Shown here piece after piece: positions 7,178-60,896 of a stretch of DNA of 64,000 bases. A program made the translations under genes and the position numbers. The DNA lies in assembly GCA_905205065.1 (NCBI GenBank), contig CAJLCI010000001.1:124690-188689 (forward strand), read 5' to 3'. Position 1 is the first letter of the stretch, and every line of letters starts with the position of its first letter. Origin of the DNA: an uncultured Eubacteriales bacterium. Lineage in GTDB: Bacteria > Bacillota > Clostridia > Oscillospirales > CAG-272. The notes beneath the pieces were generated by a model. That model had not been told where the DNA came from and made no database searches. It was given only the letters and a program-made list of their open reading frames with translations.

Positions 7178-7301
7178 AAGCGAAAATCACTTTAAAATTT
7201 ATCGTTTTGATTTAAAGTAGGTATTTTTTAATCAGATATAGCGTACACTTGATACTGTATTAAAAAATTCCTTTGCATAGTCCGAAAGGAATTGATTGGA
7301 T

Positions 7302-7475
7302 ATGGCACACCAGATTGACAGAGAAAAATGCATCGCATGCGGAACCTGCGACGTTGAATGTCCGGCAGACGCAGTTATAATCAGCGAGGCAGGAAAATTC
7401 AGCATAGACGCCGACAAATGTCTCGACTGTGGAATTTGCGCTTCGGTCTGTCCGGTAGATGCAGCACATAAATAA
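7302..7475 (+). CDS. 2x[4Fe-4S] ferredoxin of 57 aa, absent from the ORF track
   Basis: Hand translation gives MAHQIDREKCIACGTCDVECPADAVIISEAGKFSIDADKCLDCGICASVCPVDAAHK*. It contains two CxxCxxCxxxCP motifs, and an AAAGGA RBS lies upstream. Confidence 0.85.
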   Translation: MAHQIDREKCIACGTCDVECPADAVIISEAGKFSIDADKCLDCGICASVCPVDAAHK

Positions 7476-7525
7476 TTTTGATTATGAATTTCCGGCAAGA
7501 TATGCCTGAAAGGAATGGTATTTAA

Positions 7526-7882
7526 ATGTCTGATAACATTAACGAAGAAATTATGAACAATTTACCAGATGAGGAGAACGCCACCGATGCGATCGGAGAG
7601 TCTGATGATATTGAGGACATCGAAGACGAAATCTACACTCTTACTGACGAGGAAGGCAACGAAGCCCGTTTTGAGCTCGCCGGTACCAGGGAGCTTAACG
7701 GAGAGACATACTACGCTTTGATTCCCATAGAAAACGACAAAGACGAATATGTAATTCTAAAATCCGAAATCAGCGAAAACAATGAAGAAATGTTAGTTAC
7801 AATCGATGACGATGATGAGTTTAACAGCATTTCCGAAATATTTGATAATGAGCTTTTCGGTGAAATTGATTACGATTTATAA
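7526..7882 (+). CDS. DUF1292-family acidic protein
   Basis: The 118-aa ORF is very acidic. The core YTLTDEEGNE..FEL......NGETYYALIP is typical of DUF1292. Confidence 0.7.
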   Translation: MSDNINEEIMNNLPDEENATDAIGESDDIEDIEDEIYTLTDEEGNEARFELAGTRELNGETYYALIPIENDKDEYVILKSEISENNEEMLVTIDDDDEFNSISEIFDNELFGEIDYDL

Positions 7883-7949
7883 TTTAGTGTTTATAACCGC
7901 CCCTGTAAAAGTTTTGCACGTAAAGTTGTTCGGCTTTAATGGCATTCGG

Positions 7950-8045
7950 TTGTAAAAACGTTCTACTGTTAAGGCGCTTTGCTGTAATTATTTTCAGCTG
8001 TTAAGGCGTTCACCCGTAAATATTTTCAGTTGTAAAAACGTATGC
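7950..8045. repeat. 16-bp-periodic array of 6 units with a YYGTAA core
   Basis: The units are ttgtaaaaacgttcta, ctgttaaggcgctttg, ctgtaattattttcag, ctgttaaggcgttcac, ccgtaaatattttcag and ttgtaaaaacgtatgc. This amounts to a 32-bp unit repeated twice and flanked by ttgtaaaaacgt. Confidence 0.8.
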
Positions 8046-8419
8046 TTTTAATAAGTTTGACTTTACAAGCGCCAGATACTGCATTTTTCAGTGTGAGTTT
8101 ATTTTCCCACTGAAACGCAAAGAAACTAATACGCCAGTAATACTCCAGGTATAATTACAATCGTTTATAAGATCCGATCCGTGTCTTGCAAACTTGTCGA
8201 AGCGTTACTTAAATTTAAATCAAATTTAATTCTTAACAAACTTTTGAGAATAATCTTCATAACTACAGCAATAATATTAATCAGAACAAGAAGGTCAGAA
8301 AGCAATCTTAGGATCAGCCCGTAATTTCAGGCTACAGAAATTCTGTGGTTTGTATATCCTGCTTCGTTCGTGATATTTCAGTTAATTAAACCCACAATTA
8401 TTAAAAGGAGTCCAATTAC

Positions 8420-8560
8420 AGTTAAGGGATACAGACCTCCCCGGCTGCCCTGAGTTTGAGCCGCTATACGCGTCTCACCACGGCATACCGGGAAGTTGGG
8501 AGTACAAATTGGCAGTGGAGGACACCTACCTTGCGAGAGCAGGGTTTTTAATTGCTGAAT
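8420..8560 (+). ncRNA. Candidate structured RNA or R-element relative upstream of the sipL-like gene
   Basis: Nested pairings cctcc..ctgcc / ggcag.ggagg enclose about 80 nt. A ccttgc-GAGA-gcaggg hairpin followed by a T-run comes next. The 3' part (ggaggacacctaccttgcgag) resembles the R2/R5 3' ends. Confidence 0.35.
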
Positions 8561-8720
8561 ACACGGCGAAGCGGGTTTTTTTATTTTCCATGAATATTTC
8601 CGAACTGTTGTGCATAATATGAAACAAGACCATTTTTTATACAGCAGCTCCGCAACTTACACAGCTTATACTCATCTGCAGTTGCTTTTAGTTATACTTA
8701 TAGTAAAAGGAGAATTCAAA

Positions 8721-51364: not shown

Positions 51365-51673
51365 TAGTATCTTTTCCTTTCCAGCACTTCAACAGTGCAC
51401 ATGTTATTGGTTGACGCAACGCGTCAACATGACATACCGTAGGCTGCATAAATGCAGCGCGGCCATCGCGCCTTCGGCACCGGCTGGCCGAGGGCTTTTT
51501 GTATATAATTTTCCGTATATTTTCTATATATTTTCCATAATATCTTCCATATAGTATTTTCCTATATCCATATACTTTTATATCAATATAATTTACACAT
51601 ATAGAAATTAGAAATATATAATAAATATATAATAATGTAGAAAACCGATATACAAAGACACTTCCCGAAAAAA

Positions 51674-53083: not shown

Positions 53084-53120
53084 ATTCACGGCGGGATTTT
53101 TTCCCGCCGTGAATTTTTTA
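53084..53120 (+). terminator. Intrinsic terminator after abrB
   Basis: The stem aattcacggcggga/tcccgccgtgaatt is followed by TTTT. Confidence 0.8.
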
Positions 53121-55882: not shown

Positions 55883-56878
55883 ATGTCTGTTGTATCAGAT
55901 TACAAAAAAGTTAAAGAAATATACCAAAAGGCCGCGGAAAAAGGATGGGTAATTCCCTGCATCTGTTCCGAAAATCTCACTACAACCGAAGCAATCTTTT
56001 CAGCGGCGGAGGACTTTGCCGTCTCGCACGAACTCGATTCCGTTCCGGTTACAATTGCAATGACGGTAAAATACAGCCACCGCCCGCAAGCTACATACTA
56101 TACACACAGCCGCCGCGCTGACATCGGTCTCCGCTGCTTCCGCGCGGACGCCGAAATACTTTCGGAGGTATATCCCCACGTTACGGCTATGCTTCACTTA
56201 GACCATGTTCAGCCGATTGACGACAGTGACCTGCTTAACAGCGATCTTTCGGGCTACGCTTCGATAATGTATGACGCTTCAGCCTTTCCCTTTGAGCAAA
56301 ATATAAAAATGACTTCGGATTTTGTAGATAGGATGAACGACAAAATCCTCATAGAGGGAGCATGCGACGAAATATACGACGCGGGCGGATCGACTCACAA
56401 TTCAATCACAACAGCGGAGGACGCAAAACGCTTTATAGACGAAACCCGAGTTGATTTGATTGTATGCAATCTCGGAACAGAACACCGCGCGTCAGGAAAA
56501 GATTTAAAATATTACGGAGACGCCGCACGCAAAATCCGCGACGCTATAGGAGAAAAAATAGTCCTTCACGGCACCTCATCGGTAACGGCCGATCAGATTA
56601 AAACTCTTTTTGCCGACGGCGTATGCAAGGTAAATATCTGGACAGCGGTCGAACGCGATTCTTCTCCTGTGCTTCTCCGCTGGATGGCGGAAAACGCGTC
56701 GCTTATAGGCGGAGCCGCAGCAGTAGACAAACTGATAGAGGAAGGTTATCTCGGAAACCGCTGTAAAACAGGAGAATCCGCTTCGCTGAAATACTTCACC
56801 ACCGAAGCGCGCCAGCAGATAGTCTTTGAGGAAATGAAAAAAATAGTCAGAGCGTACTTCGATCTCTGGTACGTATAA
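55883..56878 (+). CDS. Class II ketose-bisphosphate aldolase family protein (FBA/tagatose-bisphosphate type)
   Basis: LHLDH, GTEH and HGTSS are zinc- and phosphate-binding motifs of class II aldolases. Confidence 0.8.
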   Translation: MSVVSDYKKVKEIYQKAAEKGWVIPCICSENLTTTEAIFSAAEDFAVSHELDSVPVTIAMTVKYSHRPQATYYTHSRRADIGLRCFRADAEILSEVYPHVTAMLHLDHVQPIDDSDLLNSDLSGYASIMYDASAFPFEQNIKMTSDFVDRMNDKILIEGACDEIYDAGGSTHNSITTAEDAKRFIDETRVDLIVCNLGTEHRASGKDLKYYGDAARKIRDAIGEKIVLHGTSSVTADQIKTLFADGVCKVNIWTAVERDSSPVLLRWMAENASLIGGAAAVDKLIEEGYLGNRCKTGESASLKYFTTEARQQIVFEEMKKIVRAYFDLWYV

Positions 56879-56915
56879 TGCTTTATCTTTTTTTCGATTT
56901 TTTTTGACAAAATGC

Positions 56916-56944
56916 TTGACAAACCTTTAATCGTGTGATATAAT
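56916..56944 (+). promoter_or_regulatory. Consensus sigma-A promoter (TTGACA-17-TATAAT) with no downstream CDS
   Basis: Both hexamers are perfect and the spacer is 17 bp. The next plus-strand gene is 4 kb away. Confidence 0.65.
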
Positions 56945-56949
56945 TATTA

Positions 56950-57372
56950 ATAGATAGAAATATTATCCATTTAGCTTTTGCTTTTTAATTAAATACCGTC
57001 TGAACCGGCAGGACATAAAAGAACGCCGGCAGATTTGTTGGATTCCCGTCCAACATCTCCTGATATTCATGTGCCGAACACACATAAATACCCACCGGAA
57101 TCCCGGCGCCGACGTGAGATATATTATAACATACTTTATTTTATATTTCAAGAGGTTTGCCGAAAAAAACCGAATTAGAGGACAAACGGTTTTGACTCTC
57201 AACCTATGTACCGTCTTTGGTCGTTGAAGTTTTAAAGCCTTTTCCCTCATTTTCAAGTTTTTGGATTCTTAAACCTTTTTTCAAAAAGGTTTAAGCCTCC
57301 GCAGGATTATTCTTCGATTTGTATTATACAAAATCGGGGCGTTGTGTTTGTGCACATGCCCCGATTTTTTTG
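56950..57372 (+). ncRNA. Candidate non-coding transcript of about 420 nt (promoter to terminator) of unknown family
   Basis: It is bounded by the 56916 promoter and the 57333 terminator. The longest plus-strand ATG ORF is under 10 codons. Perfect local hairpins include tgttgga/tccaaca and cttaaacctttt/aaaaggtttaag. Confidence 0.45.
57333..57372 (+). terminator. Strong intrinsic terminator
   Basis: The 8-bp GC-rich stem atcggggc/gccccgat is followed by TTTTTTT. Confidence 0.8.
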
Positions 57373-57503
57373 TTTTCTCTTTTTTAAATCATTCAAAAGA
57401 AAAGGACGTGATTTATTTTGTCAGAGCCAAGCGGAAGCATCTGCCGCAGGCAGAGCTGTCTCAGTCCGGTTAAAATTGAATAGAATTGACTGTCAGTTTT
57501 GAA

Positions 57504-57538
57504 CCGGAAATTAATTTCCTTCGGAGTTAATCTTCCGG
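57504..57538 (+). repeat. Module X1 (stem ccggaa/ttccgg enclosing TTCGGAGTTAATC)
   Basis: It aligns with X2 at 58490 and shares the upstream ttttgaa. Confidence 0.7.
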
Positions 57539-57892
57539 GCAAAAAAGCCGCAGCGGAGCATGAGAGGTTCCCGCCTCCCATGTCCGAACTCGGAGTTGCC
57601 GAACCAACGCCCAAGTCACTTCTGCGGTAACTGATAGTTTAACACATTCTTTGCGTTTTGTCAACACCTTTTAACGATAACAATCTCAAGCTGTCTTAAG
57701 TTGTTTCAAGTCGTTTCAAGTCGTTTTTAATTTGGTAAAACCGGGCCAACTGAATTGTGTCGGACTTTAGTGCCGTGAAATAAAAACCAGAAGTGCGCTG
57801 TCAGCTTTAGCTTTCAGTATTTAATACGAAAAGTTTGCAGTGTAATTCAGAGCGATACAATTTGATTTAGGATAATTCAATATGTTTCAGAA

Positions 57893-58006
57893 TGATTTAA
57901 TTTGATTCAGTTTGATTCAATAGATTCGGTCTGATTCAATAGATTTAATCTGATTCAATAGATTTAGTCTGATTCAATAGATTCAGTTTGATTCAGCGTG
58001 ATTTTA
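57893..58006. repeat. 19-bp tandem array of 6 units (ctgattcaatagatttagt and variants)
   Basis: The units are contiguous head to tail and were indexed by hand. Confidence 0.9.
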
Positions 58007-58134
58007 GCTGCATGCGGCGCGAGCCGCGGCTACCAATGCAGCCGAAAGTATCACATTGCAAAGCTTGTCAGCATTGATAAAGTGTTGAGGAAAAGTGTTT
58101 TTTCCCATAGCGTGTACCACATGCTATAACACGT

Positions 58135-58160
58135 CGCGTAAAAGAAGCCGCGCAAGCGGC
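58135..58160 (+). repeat. Module Z1 (cgcgtaaaagaa plus hairpin gccgc-GCAA-gcggc)
   Basis: It aligns with Z2 at 58989. The hairpin has a GNRA loop. Confidence 0.7.
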
Positions 58161-58288
58161 GTCTGTCGCAGAAACTGTTTACCTGTTTACTCAAAAAGTT
58201 AAACGTAAAAGGTAAACGTAATTGGAAGTCTACGCGTTGCGATATTCCACAATTCCGAGTTTTACGCCTGCCGGTATTTTTCCCGGAG

Positions 58289-58323
58289 GTTGACTTATCC
58301 GGTCTGTGCCGTTGATTTGTGCC
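58289..58323 (+). repeat. Module Y1 (ttgacttatccggtctgtgccgttgatttgtgcc)
   Basis: It aligns with Y2 at 59139, 850 bp away, and more weakly with 57192-57224. Confidence 0.65.
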
Positions 58324-58489
58324 AATGTTTTTTACTGTCTGTTTATGACATCAATTTTTGATGTTGGTTTGCAGTCCGCTCTATTGGTCTCTGCCGTAAT
58401 TTCTGCATTGCGGCAGGTAACATGCGCGGCACAGCCGAATTATAATAAACATTTCTCAGGTATTTTTCTGCATAATGCTTTTTGAATCG

Positions 58490-58528
58490 CCGAGAAATGT
58501 TACTTTCTTTCGGAGTTAATCTTCTCGG
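58490..58528 (+). repeat. Module X2 (stem ccgagaa/ttctcgg enclosing TTCGGAGTTAATC)
   Basis: It aligns with X1. The stem carries an extra A on one arm, matched by an extra T on the other. Confidence 0.7.
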
Positions 58529-58847
58529 ATAAACGGAATCGCAGAGAATGCAAAAGTCAAAAAACGCACTCAAAAGCTTAAAGCTGATATAAAAGCTATG
58601 CGCCAAAAAATTAAGCTTACATCAAATTGAATGTTCGGCTTTTGTATCTCATTTATATACTTGGGGTTGTGCAAGCGGCGCTCAAGCCGCTCCTGTCTTT
58701 CGGAGCGCGCTTGCAGTCATGAATGCAAGTCATGCATGCGGAAGGTCTTCCGCCATGATACGGCGCCGGGGCGAATGTGGATTTAGGCTTAACGTTTTCA
58801 CAGCGTTAACATGTCAAACGAAATTGAAGCATCGTCGGGATACAGTT

Positions 58848-58984
58848 GAAAGACGCTGAAACGACACTGAACGCAGCTGAAGCGATGTCCGGCGCAGTGA
58901 AACATACGCCGAACGAAGTTAAAGCGGCGTTAAAGCGATGCTAAACGCAGTGAGACATTCGTCAAACGCAGTGAGACGTTCTGC
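58848..58984. repeat. Degenerate tandem array of about 21 bp (aaacgcagtgagacattcgtc and variants, about 6 units)
   Basis: The two 3' units are nearly identical. The upstream units become progressively more diverged. Confidence 0.7.
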
Positions 58985-58988
58985 ACAT

Positions 58989-59014
58989 CGTGTAAAAGAA
59001 ACCGCGCGAGCGGT
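58989..59014 (+). repeat. Module Z2 (cgtgtaaaagaa plus hairpin accgc-GCGA-gcggt)
   Basis: It aligns with Z1. The closing pair changes from G-C to A-T in a compensated way, and the GNRA loop is kept. Confidence 0.7.
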
Positions 59015-59138
59015 TACACTTCCGCAAAGTACGTCTGTTTTTAAAGCTTTAAAAGCAAAGGCCGCGCGTATTTTGTGTTGCGTTAGCCCGCAATATCAAG
59101 TTTTTTCTGTTCTGTACAGAAAATTGTTTGTCCTTGAA

Positions 59139-59172
59139 ATTAACTTATCCGGTCATGCCGTTCATTCGGCAC
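59139..59172 (+). repeat. Module Y2 (ttaacttatccggtcatgccgttcattcggcac)
   Basis: It aligns with Y1. It sits inside a 9-bp outer stem atccggtca/tgaccggat that is followed by TTTTTT. Confidence 0.65.
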
Positions 59173-59215
59173 AGTCTTCTGACTGTGTTCGTCTGGCGCG
59201 GTCTGACCGGATTTT

Positions 59216-60286
59216 TTATTCACCGCTTTCGGTTTCCGAAACATCCGTAGCTGATATATCAACAAAATCGTAAAATGCAGACATAATAGATTCCGCAAAT
59301 TTTCTTTCTGCTTCCGGAGAAAAAAGAGCTTCTTCTCTGATCTCGGAAACCGGAATATGCATTTTCAGCTCAAGATTTCCGGAGCTTTTCATTGATCTTC
59401 CGGACGGAATACATTGCAGAGGCATGCCGCAGCTTTCAAGAATCACATCGGAAACAACGGCACTCGGTATATCGTCATATTCAAGGGCAGAAGCAAGCTC
59501 AGTCATTGATACTGCGCCTTTTGTCACTCTTCCGATTCTGTCAATCTCAGCATGCAAGGACGCGGATATTTCTCCGTCCTCACATAAGATTTCAGCATGA
59601 CAGTCTCCGTCCGAGCATTTAAGCATAAGCATTACCGCAGGAACAAAAGTGTAAATAAAACGCGCAAGCTCCCAAACCGCAACACGCCCCGACATCGTAT
59701 TAATAAGCTCTACAGAAAGCCTGTAACCGAGAATTCTGACCCGTTTAATCAAAATGTCTCGCATGCAGTCAATAAAAAACGCGGCAGGAACAGCTCGCTT
59801 TTCAAGTTTTCCGTTAAATCCCTCGCTCACATCATAAAGCATTGTATTCCGTCGAGTATAATTCCATGCCGCCGCAGGCGCCTGTATGTCGTTAAGCTCT
59901 CCCTGCGAGACAACAAATTCAGTCAAACGGCTTCCCGCGCAAAGCGAAACAGATCTTGCGTACTCAAGAAGAGCGTCGCTGACATTCCTTTGCAGTATAT
60001 TTAGGAATATAAATGCAGTTCTGCGCTCCCCGTTATAATTATAGCATCCGGCAAGCGAATTACGACACATTGAATACGTATTATCAAATACAATTATGTC
60101 ATATCTTTCTATCGTATCGCATCTCATCTGCAAATAAGAATCATATCCGACTGCAGAAAGATAACGTATAAGCGGGGTTCCTTTGCGGCATCCCGGAAGC
60201 AGCTTCTTCGCTGCCGCATTTTTGTAAATCAGTCTTCCGCCGCCGTCCGCAACAATTATCGGCGTTGCTGTTAAATCCAAATTCAT
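59216..60286 (-). CDS. Hypothetical protein with a PAS-like N-terminus and an acidic C-terminal tail
   Basis: The 356-aa ORF contains PIIVADGGGRLIYKNAAAKKLL, which resembles the start of a PAS fold. The middle region faintly resembles a degenerate GHKL fold. I recognise no confident family. Confidence 0.5.
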   Translation of the reverse strand: MNLDLTATPIIVADGGGRLIYKNAAAKKLLPGCRKGTPLIRYLSAVGYDSYLQMRCDTIERYDIIVFDNTYSMCRNSLAGCYNYNGERRTAFIFLNILQRNVSDALLEYARSVSLCAGSRLTEFVVSQGELNDIQAPAAAWNYTRRNTMLYDVSEGFNGKLEKRAVPAAFFIDCMRDILIKRVRILGYRLSVELINTMSGRVAVWELARFIYTFVPAVMLMLKCSDGDCHAEILCEDGEISASLHAEIDRIGRVTKGAVSMTELASALEYDDIPSAVVSDVILESCGMPLQCIPSGRSMKSSGNLELKMHIPVSEIREEALFSPEAERKFAESIMSAFYDFVDISATDVSETESGE

Positions 60287-60430
60287 TTTTGTTTTTCTCC
60301 GTCTTTTAATTTTGTGTTAAGCAGCATAAAAAGCAACACACTTAATAAGTGGTATATACCCGATATAAGGCGTTACTGCAGCTGACGCCGACACCGCAAA
60401 AAGCGAGTGTAAGCATCACCGGTAAAGTCA

Positions 60431-60558
60431 AACATCTTTACAGCCGAACATCTTTACAGCCGAACATCTTTGCAGCTGAACATCTTTGCAGCAAAACGTC
60501 TTTACAGTCGAACACCTTTGCAGCCGAAAGTCTATACAGCCGAAAGTCTTTTCACGCA
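60431..60558. repeat. 16-bp tandem array of 8 units (aacatctttacagccg and variants)
   Basis: The units are contiguous. The reverse complement carries a CTGTAAA core every 16 bp, like the 7950 array. Confidence 0.9.
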
Positions 60559-60821
60559 CCATCTTACAAACGGCGACATTTCGCTTTTAGTATCAGTAAA
60601 ACCAGAAAAACCGCAATCTTTTGCTGTCTGATTTGCAAGATCTCTCTTTCATCGAAACTAAACCTGCATCTTAGAGCATAAAGCTTTAAAGCATTTTACC
60701 ATAAACCAGTCATTTTTTCAATAAACACAATACAATCTTTTTCAAATAGCATGAATATTTAATTCTTGATATATACAAATAAGGTTAATTGTTACAATTT
60801 TTAAAAATTTTATCTTTTCCC

Positions 60822-60850
60822 TTGTAAAACAATTGAAAATGAGTTAAAAT
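60822..60850 (+). promoter_or_regulatory. Possible gap promoter (TTGTAA-17-TAAAAT)
   Basis: The hexamers were read directly and lie about 45 nt upstream of the gap start. Confidence 0.4.
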
Positions 60851-60896
60851 ACTTGTATATGTAAATATAAATATTTAATCCTGGAGGAACTATAAT

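Follow-up and report, generated by a model that had tools for sequence, protein, structure and literature searches.

A gene-free island of predicted small RNA genes with shared, strain-variable loops in an uncultured gut Eubacteriales genome

The DNA analysed here, referred to as the window, is a stretch of 64,000 nucleotides (nt) on contig CAJLCI010000001.1 (assembly GCA_905205065.1) of an uncultured Eubacteriales bacterium, and the element in question is the block at positions 56879-59215, which contains no credible open reading frame (ORF). With a probability of roughly one half, we read this block as a genus-restricted island of regulatory RNA genes that would be organized around loop-loop antisense pairing, and not as a triplicated repeat. 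The block is ORF-free, close to the genome average in G+C content and repetitive in part, and it is not composed of three copies of one unit. At 2337 nt it is the longest ORF-free stretch in the window, the next longest measuring 1381 nt, and 2.3 kb free of genes are rarely kept in bacterial genomes. Its G+C content is 0.414, compared with 0.422 for the whole window and 0.27-0.39 for nine of 12 other gaps in the window (the other three are at 0.37, 0.418 and 0.447). Both the lack of ORFs and a G+C content above that of typical intergenic DNA had been pointed out in an earlier reading of the letters alone (the sequence-only reading), and both are borne out.

The island is syntenic at only one of 79 GTDB loci with a related aldolase gene, namely that of a sister species (L001), whose aldolase is 93% identical. 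By comparison, genomes with 80-84% identical aldolases carry no island, and neither does a species with an 83% identical homologue of the 356-amino-acid (aa) protein encoded on the other side of the block, in which that gene is directly followed by rplS. Metagenome contigs scanned with a 21-mer of the most conserved block yielded the same species only. The nearest genomes in GTDB belong to uncultured Clostridia/Eubacteriales sampled from the gut, and the island shows chromosomal synteny with the fba/gap genes. Judging from these comparisons, the island appears to be genus-restricted and confined so far to two species. Within the species, about 30 contigs (97.3-100% identity) representing nine island haplotypes were retrieved via the flanking proteins; one of them, QALB01000004.1 of GCA_003343545.1 (L119), is 100% identical to the window over the 6 kb compared.

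Alignment with L001 reveals a mosaic in which conserved blocks alternate with lineage-specific insertions and unalignable tandem arrays. The blocks containing the two predicted small RNA (sRNA) genes described below, R1 and R2, are 88% and 83% identical, respectively, together with their promoters, and the remaining blocks are 87% (b), 92% (c-left), 84% (d), 81% (f/Y2) and 88.5% (h) identical, as compared with 65-77% at the third codon positions of four flanking genes and 41% in a 19-nt tandem array. The view that this is not spacer DNA is upheld by blocks that are 83-92% identical between species, where synonymous sites of flanking genes reach 65-70%. Differences within the blocks fall mostly in hairpin loops, and the stems are kept, several of them via compensating changes such as CUUGCA/UGCAAG to CUUACA/UGUAAG in block h and CCUCCGG/CCGG-AGG to UUUCCG/CGCGGAA in block f. 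As judged from this sequence conservation, at least seven separate non-coding blocks are under purifying selection. Frameshifted remnants of a protein gene are hardly credible as an explanation, since the interspecies indels are not multiples of three and stems, not codons, are conserved; a six-frame Pfam scan of the block gave a best E value of 0.31, and tblastn searches of the block with the aldolase, the 356-aa protein and homologues as queries gave nothing better than E = 0.2. The possibility of a pseudogene, which the sequence-only reading had itself raised, therefore finds no support in either search.

R1 and R2 are read from the minus strand (Table 1). The three best sigma-70 promoter matches in the window, P+, P_R1 and P_R2, are also the three best in L001 and occupy orthologous sites, with hexamers intact and spacers diverged, and no other promoter-like site is conserved between the window and L001; predicted intrinsic terminators stand where these promoters would require them. 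P_R1 lies partly within a 52-nt run identical between both species. The minus strand of R1 folds with -46.8 kcal/mol (z -5.3) versus -29.7 kcal/mol for the plus strand; six of its pairs are G·U on the minus strand only and A·C on the plus strand, and four alleles preserve every one of the 36 core pairs. R2 folds with -41.9 kcal/mol (z -3.5), its minimum free energy structure accounting for 65% of the ensemble; across five alleles 98.8% of cells are paired, with one compensatory and three wobble changes, and five G·U pairs form on the minus strand only, being A·C on the plus strand. Consistently, sliding-window alignment folds favour the minus strand by 7-17 kcal/mol (R1, -47.2 versus -29.9; R2, -42.1 versus -34.9), and every stem substitution in R1 or R2, whether among strains or in L001, keeps minus-strand pairing. 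Covariance models of R1 and R2 detect only their orthologues in 281 kb, and neither finds the other. Both loci are thus predicted to have the generic marks of an sRNA gene: an own promoter, an intrinsic terminator and a stable fold on one strand.

The exposed loops of R1 and R2 carry common words. Hairpin 2 of R1 and hairpin 1 of R2 present the same, lineage-variable word in loop 1, which reads (R1/R2) UGUUCGG/GUUCGG in eight contigs, UUCUUGG/UUCUUGG in three and UCCUUUG/UCCUUUG in five, and UUGCGAG/UUGCUUG in L001. Loop 2 (R1 hairpin 3 and R2 hairpin 2) reads CGGGAA in both RNAs and GUCCAG in both RNAs of L001. The two loops are spaced by 25 nt in R1 and R2 alike, with only 11 of 25 spacer positions identical, and the stems are fixed while the loop words vary among strains and species. 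In a comparison of seven strains over 21 kb, the two loops are the only multi-substitution patches in RNA hairpin loops, bar one terminator-loop inversion. The loop identity between R1 and R2 extends only 2 nt into each stem, which makes gene conversion unlikely, and common selection on the loop words appears to be the simpler reading. At the DNA level, TTCCCG and CCGAAC(A) occur in the same order and with the same 25-nt spacing at 57043-57080 and 57568-57604; the bipartite complementary motif is found consistently only at anti-R1 and anti-R2, and a third co-varying target site is absent from 21 kb in three allele backgrounds. As a separate observation, the independent metagenome contigs L104, L105, L130 and L131 end within or just after R1 (window ~57030-57290), at the hypervariable loop and dense single-nucleotide polymorphisms (SNPs), and these breaks are probably assembly-graph bubbles from co-existing strains.

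On the plus strand, P+ and the terminator at 57330-57371 would delimit a 'sense' RNA whose 5' part is antisense to R1 and whose 3' part comprises hairpin b, flanked by lineage-specific insertions, and the terminator itself. This RNA folds with -127.5 kcal/mol (z -7.6), and the window 57255-57384 favours the plus strand in alignment folds. Stem substitutions in the terminator of L001 and of strain L113 form G·U pairs on the plus strand only, and such wobble changes in two lineages support plus-strand use of the terminator; owing to the A-tract upstream and the T-tract downstream of its stem, it could also stop minus-strand transcription. In addition, CAUGUGC at 57068-57074, the 5' arm of the plus copy of R1 hairpin 2, is complementary to GCACAUG at 57356-57362 in the 3' arm of the terminator; both arms are conserved in L001 (~0.03 expected by chance), and the complementarity could reflect anti-terminator pairing or chance.

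The loops of R1 and R2 may serve as recognition elements for loop-loop (kissing) antisense pairing, as the same DNA words stand at the two loci and, read from opposite strands, would give complementary RNAs. The P+ transcript carries UUCCCG-N25-CCGAACA and would therefore be complementary to R1 in cis over its whole length and to R2 in trans at both loops, and a plus-strand transcript running from c-left across R2 would be complementary to R1. Pairing would set the fate of the plus-strand RNA, either its stability or the choice between termination and read-through at 57330-57371 into the downstream 1.8 kb. As neither a toxin nor a rep gene is present in the island, we propose that the plus-strand non-coding RNAs are themselves what is controlled; we hold such control of stability or read-through by R1 and R2, as in countertranscript systems of Gram-positive plasmids and in par of pAD1, with moderate to low confidence. 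A further-reaching and quite improbable interpretation is an RNA-only specificity system, in which sibling sRNAs and their antisense partners would diversify two 6-7-nt loop words among strains. It would be analogous to the determinants of plasmid incompatibility or phage heteroimmunity, though chromosomal and without a protein gene; it could represent an RNA-based immunity or exclusion module or an RNA-toxin/antitoxin module, perhaps linked to a prophage at the island edge, and would possibly drive a long structured RNA downstream.

Several observations weigh against an island organized around antisense pairing. No downstream gene is present for antisense control to regulate. The loop match is not obligatory: R1 with UUCUUGG occurs together with R2 with GUUCGG in six of the 22 same-species contigs covering both loci, a mismatch best explained, from the SNP patterns, by recombination within the 500 nt that separate R1 from R2, and the loop-1 pair of L001 matches at only five of seven positions. 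Alternatively, the loops could be identical because R1 and R2 have a third partner or a protein in common, and not through cross-talk with plus-strand RNAs. With two species only, covariation is weak; R2 has one compensatory pair, and 93 of 500 shuffles reach the observed score, and the stems of R1 are invariant. Furthermore, the promoter comparison revealed no conserved site for c-left or for the island right of 57700, which leaves ~1.5 kb without an assigned transcription unit, and the strand calls right of 57700 reflect modest energy differences on a G+U-rich strand.

Table 1. Predicted features of the ORF-free island, in window coordinates
Feature	Position	Strand	Remarks
P+ promoter	56916-56944	+	TTGACA-17-TGnTATAAT, 12/12; orthologous L001 site 12/12, spacer diverged
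Second, weaker terminator-like hairpin	56994-57010	-	Downstream of R1; kept in L001 with changes
Plus-strand 'sense' RNA no. 1, ~420 nt	56951-57371	+	Inferred from P+ and plus-strand terminator
R1, predicted ~100-nt sRNA gene	57014-57115	-	Four-way junction: 8-bp closing stem and three hairpins, then UUCUUUUAU
R1 loops	57074-57080 (loop 1), 57043-57048 (loop 2)		
P_R1 promoter	57123-57151	-	TTGAAA-17-TGnTATAAT, 11/12 in window and L001
Hairpin b, 18-bp arms	57263-57300	+	Inverted repeat I2, 89% complementary; 92% identical to L001
Bidirectional intrinsic terminator (predicted)	57330-57371	.	A-tract, G+C stem 57335-57363, T7
c-left, multi-hairpin domain	57402-57541	+	Most conserved block (92%); closing 57430-57437 with 57531-57538; contains X1 57504-57538
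R2, predicted ~90-nt sRNA gene	57540-57630	-	Three-way junction: closing stem and two hairpins, then U6
R2 loops	57599-57604 (loop 1), 57568-57573 (loop 2)		
P_R2 promoter	57636-57664	-	TTGACA-17-TGnTAAACT, 10/12 in window and L001
10-nt tandem repeat, 2.9 copies	57698-57726	.	Copy number polymorphic among strains
Block d, structured, 84% conserved	57745-57850	+ (tentative)	
19-nt tandem array, 6.3 copies	57875-57995	.	Absent or unalignable in L001 (41% identity); copy number strain-variable
Y+Z copy 2	58126-58338	.	Z2 hairpin 58147-58160, block f 58234-58265, Y2 58289-58320
Tandem repeat	58194-58221		
Hairpin X2, paralogue of X1	58490-58528	+	Outer stems of X1 and X2 differ by compensating changes
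Block h, run of hairpins, 88.5% conserved	58693-58805	ambiguous	One G-C to A-U compensatory change
Degenerate tandem repeats (..CAGUGA(A/G)AC..)	58847-58980 (array 58847-58945)	.	L001: different, more regular array at the same place
Y+Z copy 3	58981-59186	.	Directly downstream of convergent coding sequence 59216-60286; Z3 59000-59015
Long hairpin and T6, predicted plus-strand terminator	59147-59218	+	Arms 59147-59160 and 59199-59212; abuts stop codon of minus-strand coding sequence; I12

Further structured blocks lie to the right of the terminator. The c-left domain contains runs of 36, 19 and 27 nt identical to L001 and folds better on the plus strand (-43.0 kcal/mol, z -3.6) than on the minus strand (-33.8 kcal/mol, z -2.2), as it does in the alignment fold (-42.6 versus -30.7). 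In L001, the U·G pairs needed by its hairpin at 57466-57507 and by X1 exist on the plus strand only, and a CGG-to-CGC change improves the long-range closing stem. Similarly, the apical UUUC/GGAG stem of X2 needs plus-strand G·U pairs, and the alignment fold of the terminator at 59147-59218 favours the plus strand (-40.3 versus -33.4).

These plus-strand preferences bear on an alternative in which a single structured non-coding RNA of 1.8-2.3 kb runs on the plus strand from P+ (or ~57420) to the terminator at 59147-59218, in which case R1 and R2 would be antisense regulators nested in it, and X1/X2 and both Y+Z copies would be its internal modules. In its favour, the plus strand gives somewhat better folds in most windows to the right of 57700, plus-strand G·U pairs are required by the X hairpins and by c-left, a strong plus-strand terminator stands at the very end, and no internal conserved promoters were found. 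However, a strong plus-strand terminator already lies at 57330-57371, the minus strand is favoured by the tails of hairpins Z2 and Z3 as well as by a pair of changes in block h, the tandem arrays and the segments 58340-58470 and 58540-58690 are not conserved, and the plus-strand preference may merely reflect G+U richness. We therefore regard one long RNA as unlikely.

The sequence-only reading had presented the block as made of three decayed direct copies of one 0.85-1.1-kb structured-RNA unit with modules Z, Y and X. Self-comparison with BLAST reveals only two real similarities in the block, a Y+Z pair (~210 nt) and an X hairpin pair (~40 nt), so that repeated material makes up ~260 of 2337 nt (~11%). 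The Y+Z duplication aligns 58130-58338 with 58984-59186 in one 218-column alignment (61% identity, E = 1e-7), and X1/X2 align 57497-57543 with 58480-58533 (80% identity, E = 4e-5); the corresponding repeat pairs are D5 at 58130/58984 (87%), D6 at 58277/59127 (79%) and D4 at 57511/58500 (82%). A profile hidden Markov model (nhmmer) built from four Y+Z copies of two species recovers only these four copies (E = 1e-49 to 1e-61), and finds no copy in 56879-58100 and nothing at 57013 or 57192, its best other match (E = 0.3) lying elsewhere. When a common fold was sought for the four copies, only the Z hairpin proved common to them. Copy 2 includes a 30-nt run identical to L001, and Z2 and Z3 have U-rich tails on the minus strand only, suggesting that they are minus-strand terminators. 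In the L001 stem of Z3, a G·U pair is kept on the minus strand only, and Z3 is probably where transcription of the 356-aa gene ends, which would give its mRNA a 3' untranslated region of 215 nt.

Some of the proposed organization is therefore real: Z2/Z3, Y2/Y3 and X1/X2 stand where they had been placed, Z+Y is duplicated at distances of 854/850 nt, X occurs twice, and the order Z, Y, X recurs. Z1 has in common with the other Z elements a stem and a UUCUUUUAY tail motif on the minus strand, and a CUGCC..GGCAG hairpin precedes X in c-left and upstream of X2. Nevertheless, Z1 and Y1 are not copies: the resemblance of Z1 is confined to the terminator-tail motif, Y1 is not conserved in L001, unit 1 is invisible to the Y+Z profile, and unit 3 lacks an X. 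The spacings of 854 and 850 nt, attributed to units 1 and 2, belong to units 2 and 3, the distance from Z at 57013 to Z at 58135 being ~1120 nt. The R1 and R2 models find no additional copies, and the most conserved blocks are single-copy and use both strands. The parts that look functional, namely R1, R2, the plus-strand antisense RNA, c-left and blocks d and h, occur for the most part once, are spread over the two strands and were not among the modules Z, Y and X. A triplicated unit is thus largely refuted and very improbable. The embedded tandem arrays that had been described do exist (57875-57995, 57698-57726, 58194-58221 and 58847-58945); together with the Y+Z duplication, they appear as secondary features of the island. 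Of the tandem family of structured RNA genes, the structured RNA genes survive, with stems kept and promoters and terminators conserved, and the triplication does not.

We also considered a type I toxin-antitoxin locus of the par/Fst or Sib/Ibs kind, in which the plus-strand RNA would encode a toxic peptide, with an initiation region between the two repeats, and R1 and R2 would act as RNA antitoxins. The convergent promoters, the common bidirectional terminator and the two direct DNA repeats on opposite strands match par, and an AUG at 57069, between the loop motifs, opens a frame of 52 codons. This frame was rejected as a peptide gene: it has no Shine-Dalgarno sequence and no hydrophobic stretch of transmembrane length, is cut to 38 codons in L115/L116, ends in an unrelated C-terminus in L001 and accumulates many non-synonymous differences within the species. 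No Fst, Ldr, Hok or other toxin family was matched in the six-frame Pfam scan at E <= 1, and scanning for Shine-Dalgarno sequences and start codons returned poor candidates only, with no Shine-Dalgarno-preceded hydrophobic ORF. Such a locus is consequently very unlikely. Two other small frames were discarded, a 73-aa ORF at 57393-57614 called in the public record (L119/L126), which is broken by 1-nt strain indel polymorphisms, and a 23-codon frame inside R1, which is not conserved as a protein; in general, candidate small ORFs have no Shine-Dalgarno sequence, their lengths shift, and non-synonymous changes accumulate among strains.

Searches for known RNAs were likewise negative for the island. 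Rfam 15 at the gathering thresholds gives no match in the block, where a search of all families, C4 included, at E <= 10 yields only chance-level miRNA- and snoRNA-type matches far below threshold; the L001 island at E <= 1 gives one chance miRNA match. There is no tRNA or tmRNA in the window. The only gathering-level match in the whole window is 6S RNA at 8353-8581 (+) (RF00013, 59.7 bits), which accounts for some of 7178-8558, the ORF-free stretch that ranks second in length.

A rather improbable alternative is that the block acts, if at all, as DNA and has no RNA function, being an element or the leftovers of integrated mobile elements at an integration hotspot, with duplicated attachment-site flanks, iteron-like arrays and protein-binding palindromes. 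In one strain (L099), a prophage is inserted at ~56908-56913, at the island's left edge; Y+Z copy 2 is a duplicate of the sequence that flanks the adjacent coding sequence on its 3' side; the 19-nt and 10-nt arrays are polymorphic in copy number; and a perfect palindrome lies at 57315-57336. By contrast, in both species that carry it the island is syntenic and subject to purifying selection, the strand-specific G·U evidence and the promoter/terminator pairs point to RNA, and no similarity to the island was found in 50,697 phage and 72,556 plasmid records or in viral contigs; exact 18-20-mers of R1, R2 and c-left gave one match in IMG/VR, which was shown to be chance. The L099 prophage itself (L099:5996-10996) carries genes for an SPP1-type holin, an amidase, an HTH_38 protein and a HIRAN-domain protein, and is inserted 30-35 nt beyond the stop codon of the aldolase gene, immediately upstream of the P+ -35 box, the window similarity ending inside TTTTTTTTGA|CAAAAT.

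The island is bordered on the left by the gene for a class-II aldolase (55883-56878, +) and on the right by the convergent gene for the 356-aa protein of unknown function (59216-60286, -), with genes for an FGGY kinase and GAPDH further out. The 356-aa protein has no match in Pfam, NCBIfam, PADLOC or PDB sequences; with no such match, and persisting in species without the island, it was rejected as a partner of the island. Only six clusters of relatives were found among 5.8 billion proteins, and its gene adjoins the GAPDH gene in every contig inspected. A distant relative with a 31% identical homologue has a stretch of 2.2-2.5 kb with one small called ORF between a beta-galactosidase gene and GAPDH (L090:2159-4403 and L091:1901-4403), which has no sequence similarity to the island.

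Strain variation is also evident elsewhere. The intergenic DNA that separates gapA from the 356-aa gene (60317-60878, with a spurious ORF at 60349-60681) contains 13-14-nt tandem repeats (..ACATCTTTGCAGC..) of strain-variable copy number and is where variable sites are densest when the 21 kb compared are divided into 500-nt bins. At ~53090-53105, the loop of a terminator-like hairpin is inverted between strains (GGGAAAAAATCCC vs GGGATTTTTTCCC), and at ~51600-51620, in AT-rich intergenic DNA, the window strain carries a 7-nt replacement relative to six other strains (AACATATAATAA vs ATTAGAAATATA).

Among known systems, the par locus of pAD1 has convergent promoters, a common bidirectional terminator and direct repeats DRa and DRb read in opposite directions (PMC7472228). 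In the island, P+ and P_R2 likewise face the terminator at 57330-57371, which transcription from P_R2 might use, and the loop words at 57043-57080 and 57568-57604 form two direct DNA repeats on opposite strands. Unlike par, the island has no Fst-like or other toxin ORF with a Shine-Dalgarno sequence, its RNAs are larger, an extra, fully cis-antisense sRNA (R1) is present, and R2 has its own U-tail 170 nt before the common terminator.

In the RNAIII/repR leader system of pIP501, convergent sense and antisense promoters are combined with an attenuator in the sense RNA (PMC4981023), and two loop pairs must interact simultaneously, as stated where that article refers to Heidrich & Brantl 2007. By comparison with pIP501 and pT181 attenuation, R1 and P_R1 lie inside the P+ transcript, with the terminator 215 nt downstream of the R1 target, and a multi-hairpin antisense RNA of ~100-136 nt is a feature common to such Inc18/pT181-type plasmids and, as predicted, the island. 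In contrast to those plasmids, the island is chromosomal, has no rep gene or coding sequence downstream on the plus strand, no CopR-like repressor and no DNA similarity to plasmids.

Concerted variation of recognition words is likewise a feature of the c4 RNAs of phages P1 and P7, where the words in the antisense RNA and in its ant-operon targets differ in concert and set specificity (heteroimmunity). The island resembles them in that short words in an RNA and in its putative targets vary in concert between related elements, and differs in having no Rfam C4 match at E <= 10 and no icd/ant genes and in not residing on a prophage. Clusters of sibling sRNAs, such as LhrC1-5 of Listeria, Qrr and the Sib RNAs of E. 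coli, offer a further parallel, with several small RNA genes in one intergenic region that have their own promoters and terminators and short exposed motifs in common. R1 and R2, however, are not detectably homologous outside the loops, and their common motifs are strain-variable and not the most conserved part. Finally, ROOL, GOLLD, OLE, raiA and HEARO, which the sequence-only reading had named as candidates, are long, ORF-free, G+C-normal and structured intergenic sequences in Firmicutes as well; the Rfam covariance search matched none of them in the island, which uses both strands and has internal promoters and terminators, features that argue for several short genes and not one large RNA.

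None of the conserved blocks belongs to a described RNA family, and the unusual features are the size of the island, the number of independently conserved blocks and the strain-variable common loops. Recognition loops polymorphic within one gut species would constitute a natural allelic series for the evolution of RNA-RNA specificity. On the comparisons made here, the island is best viewed as a putative cluster of undescribed RNA genes with an antisense core, a variant of known antisense systems and not a new category; if R1, R2 and the plus-strand RNAs interact, it would be a chromosomal, protein-free counterpart of the antisense circuits of plasmids, phages and type I toxin-antitoxin loci.

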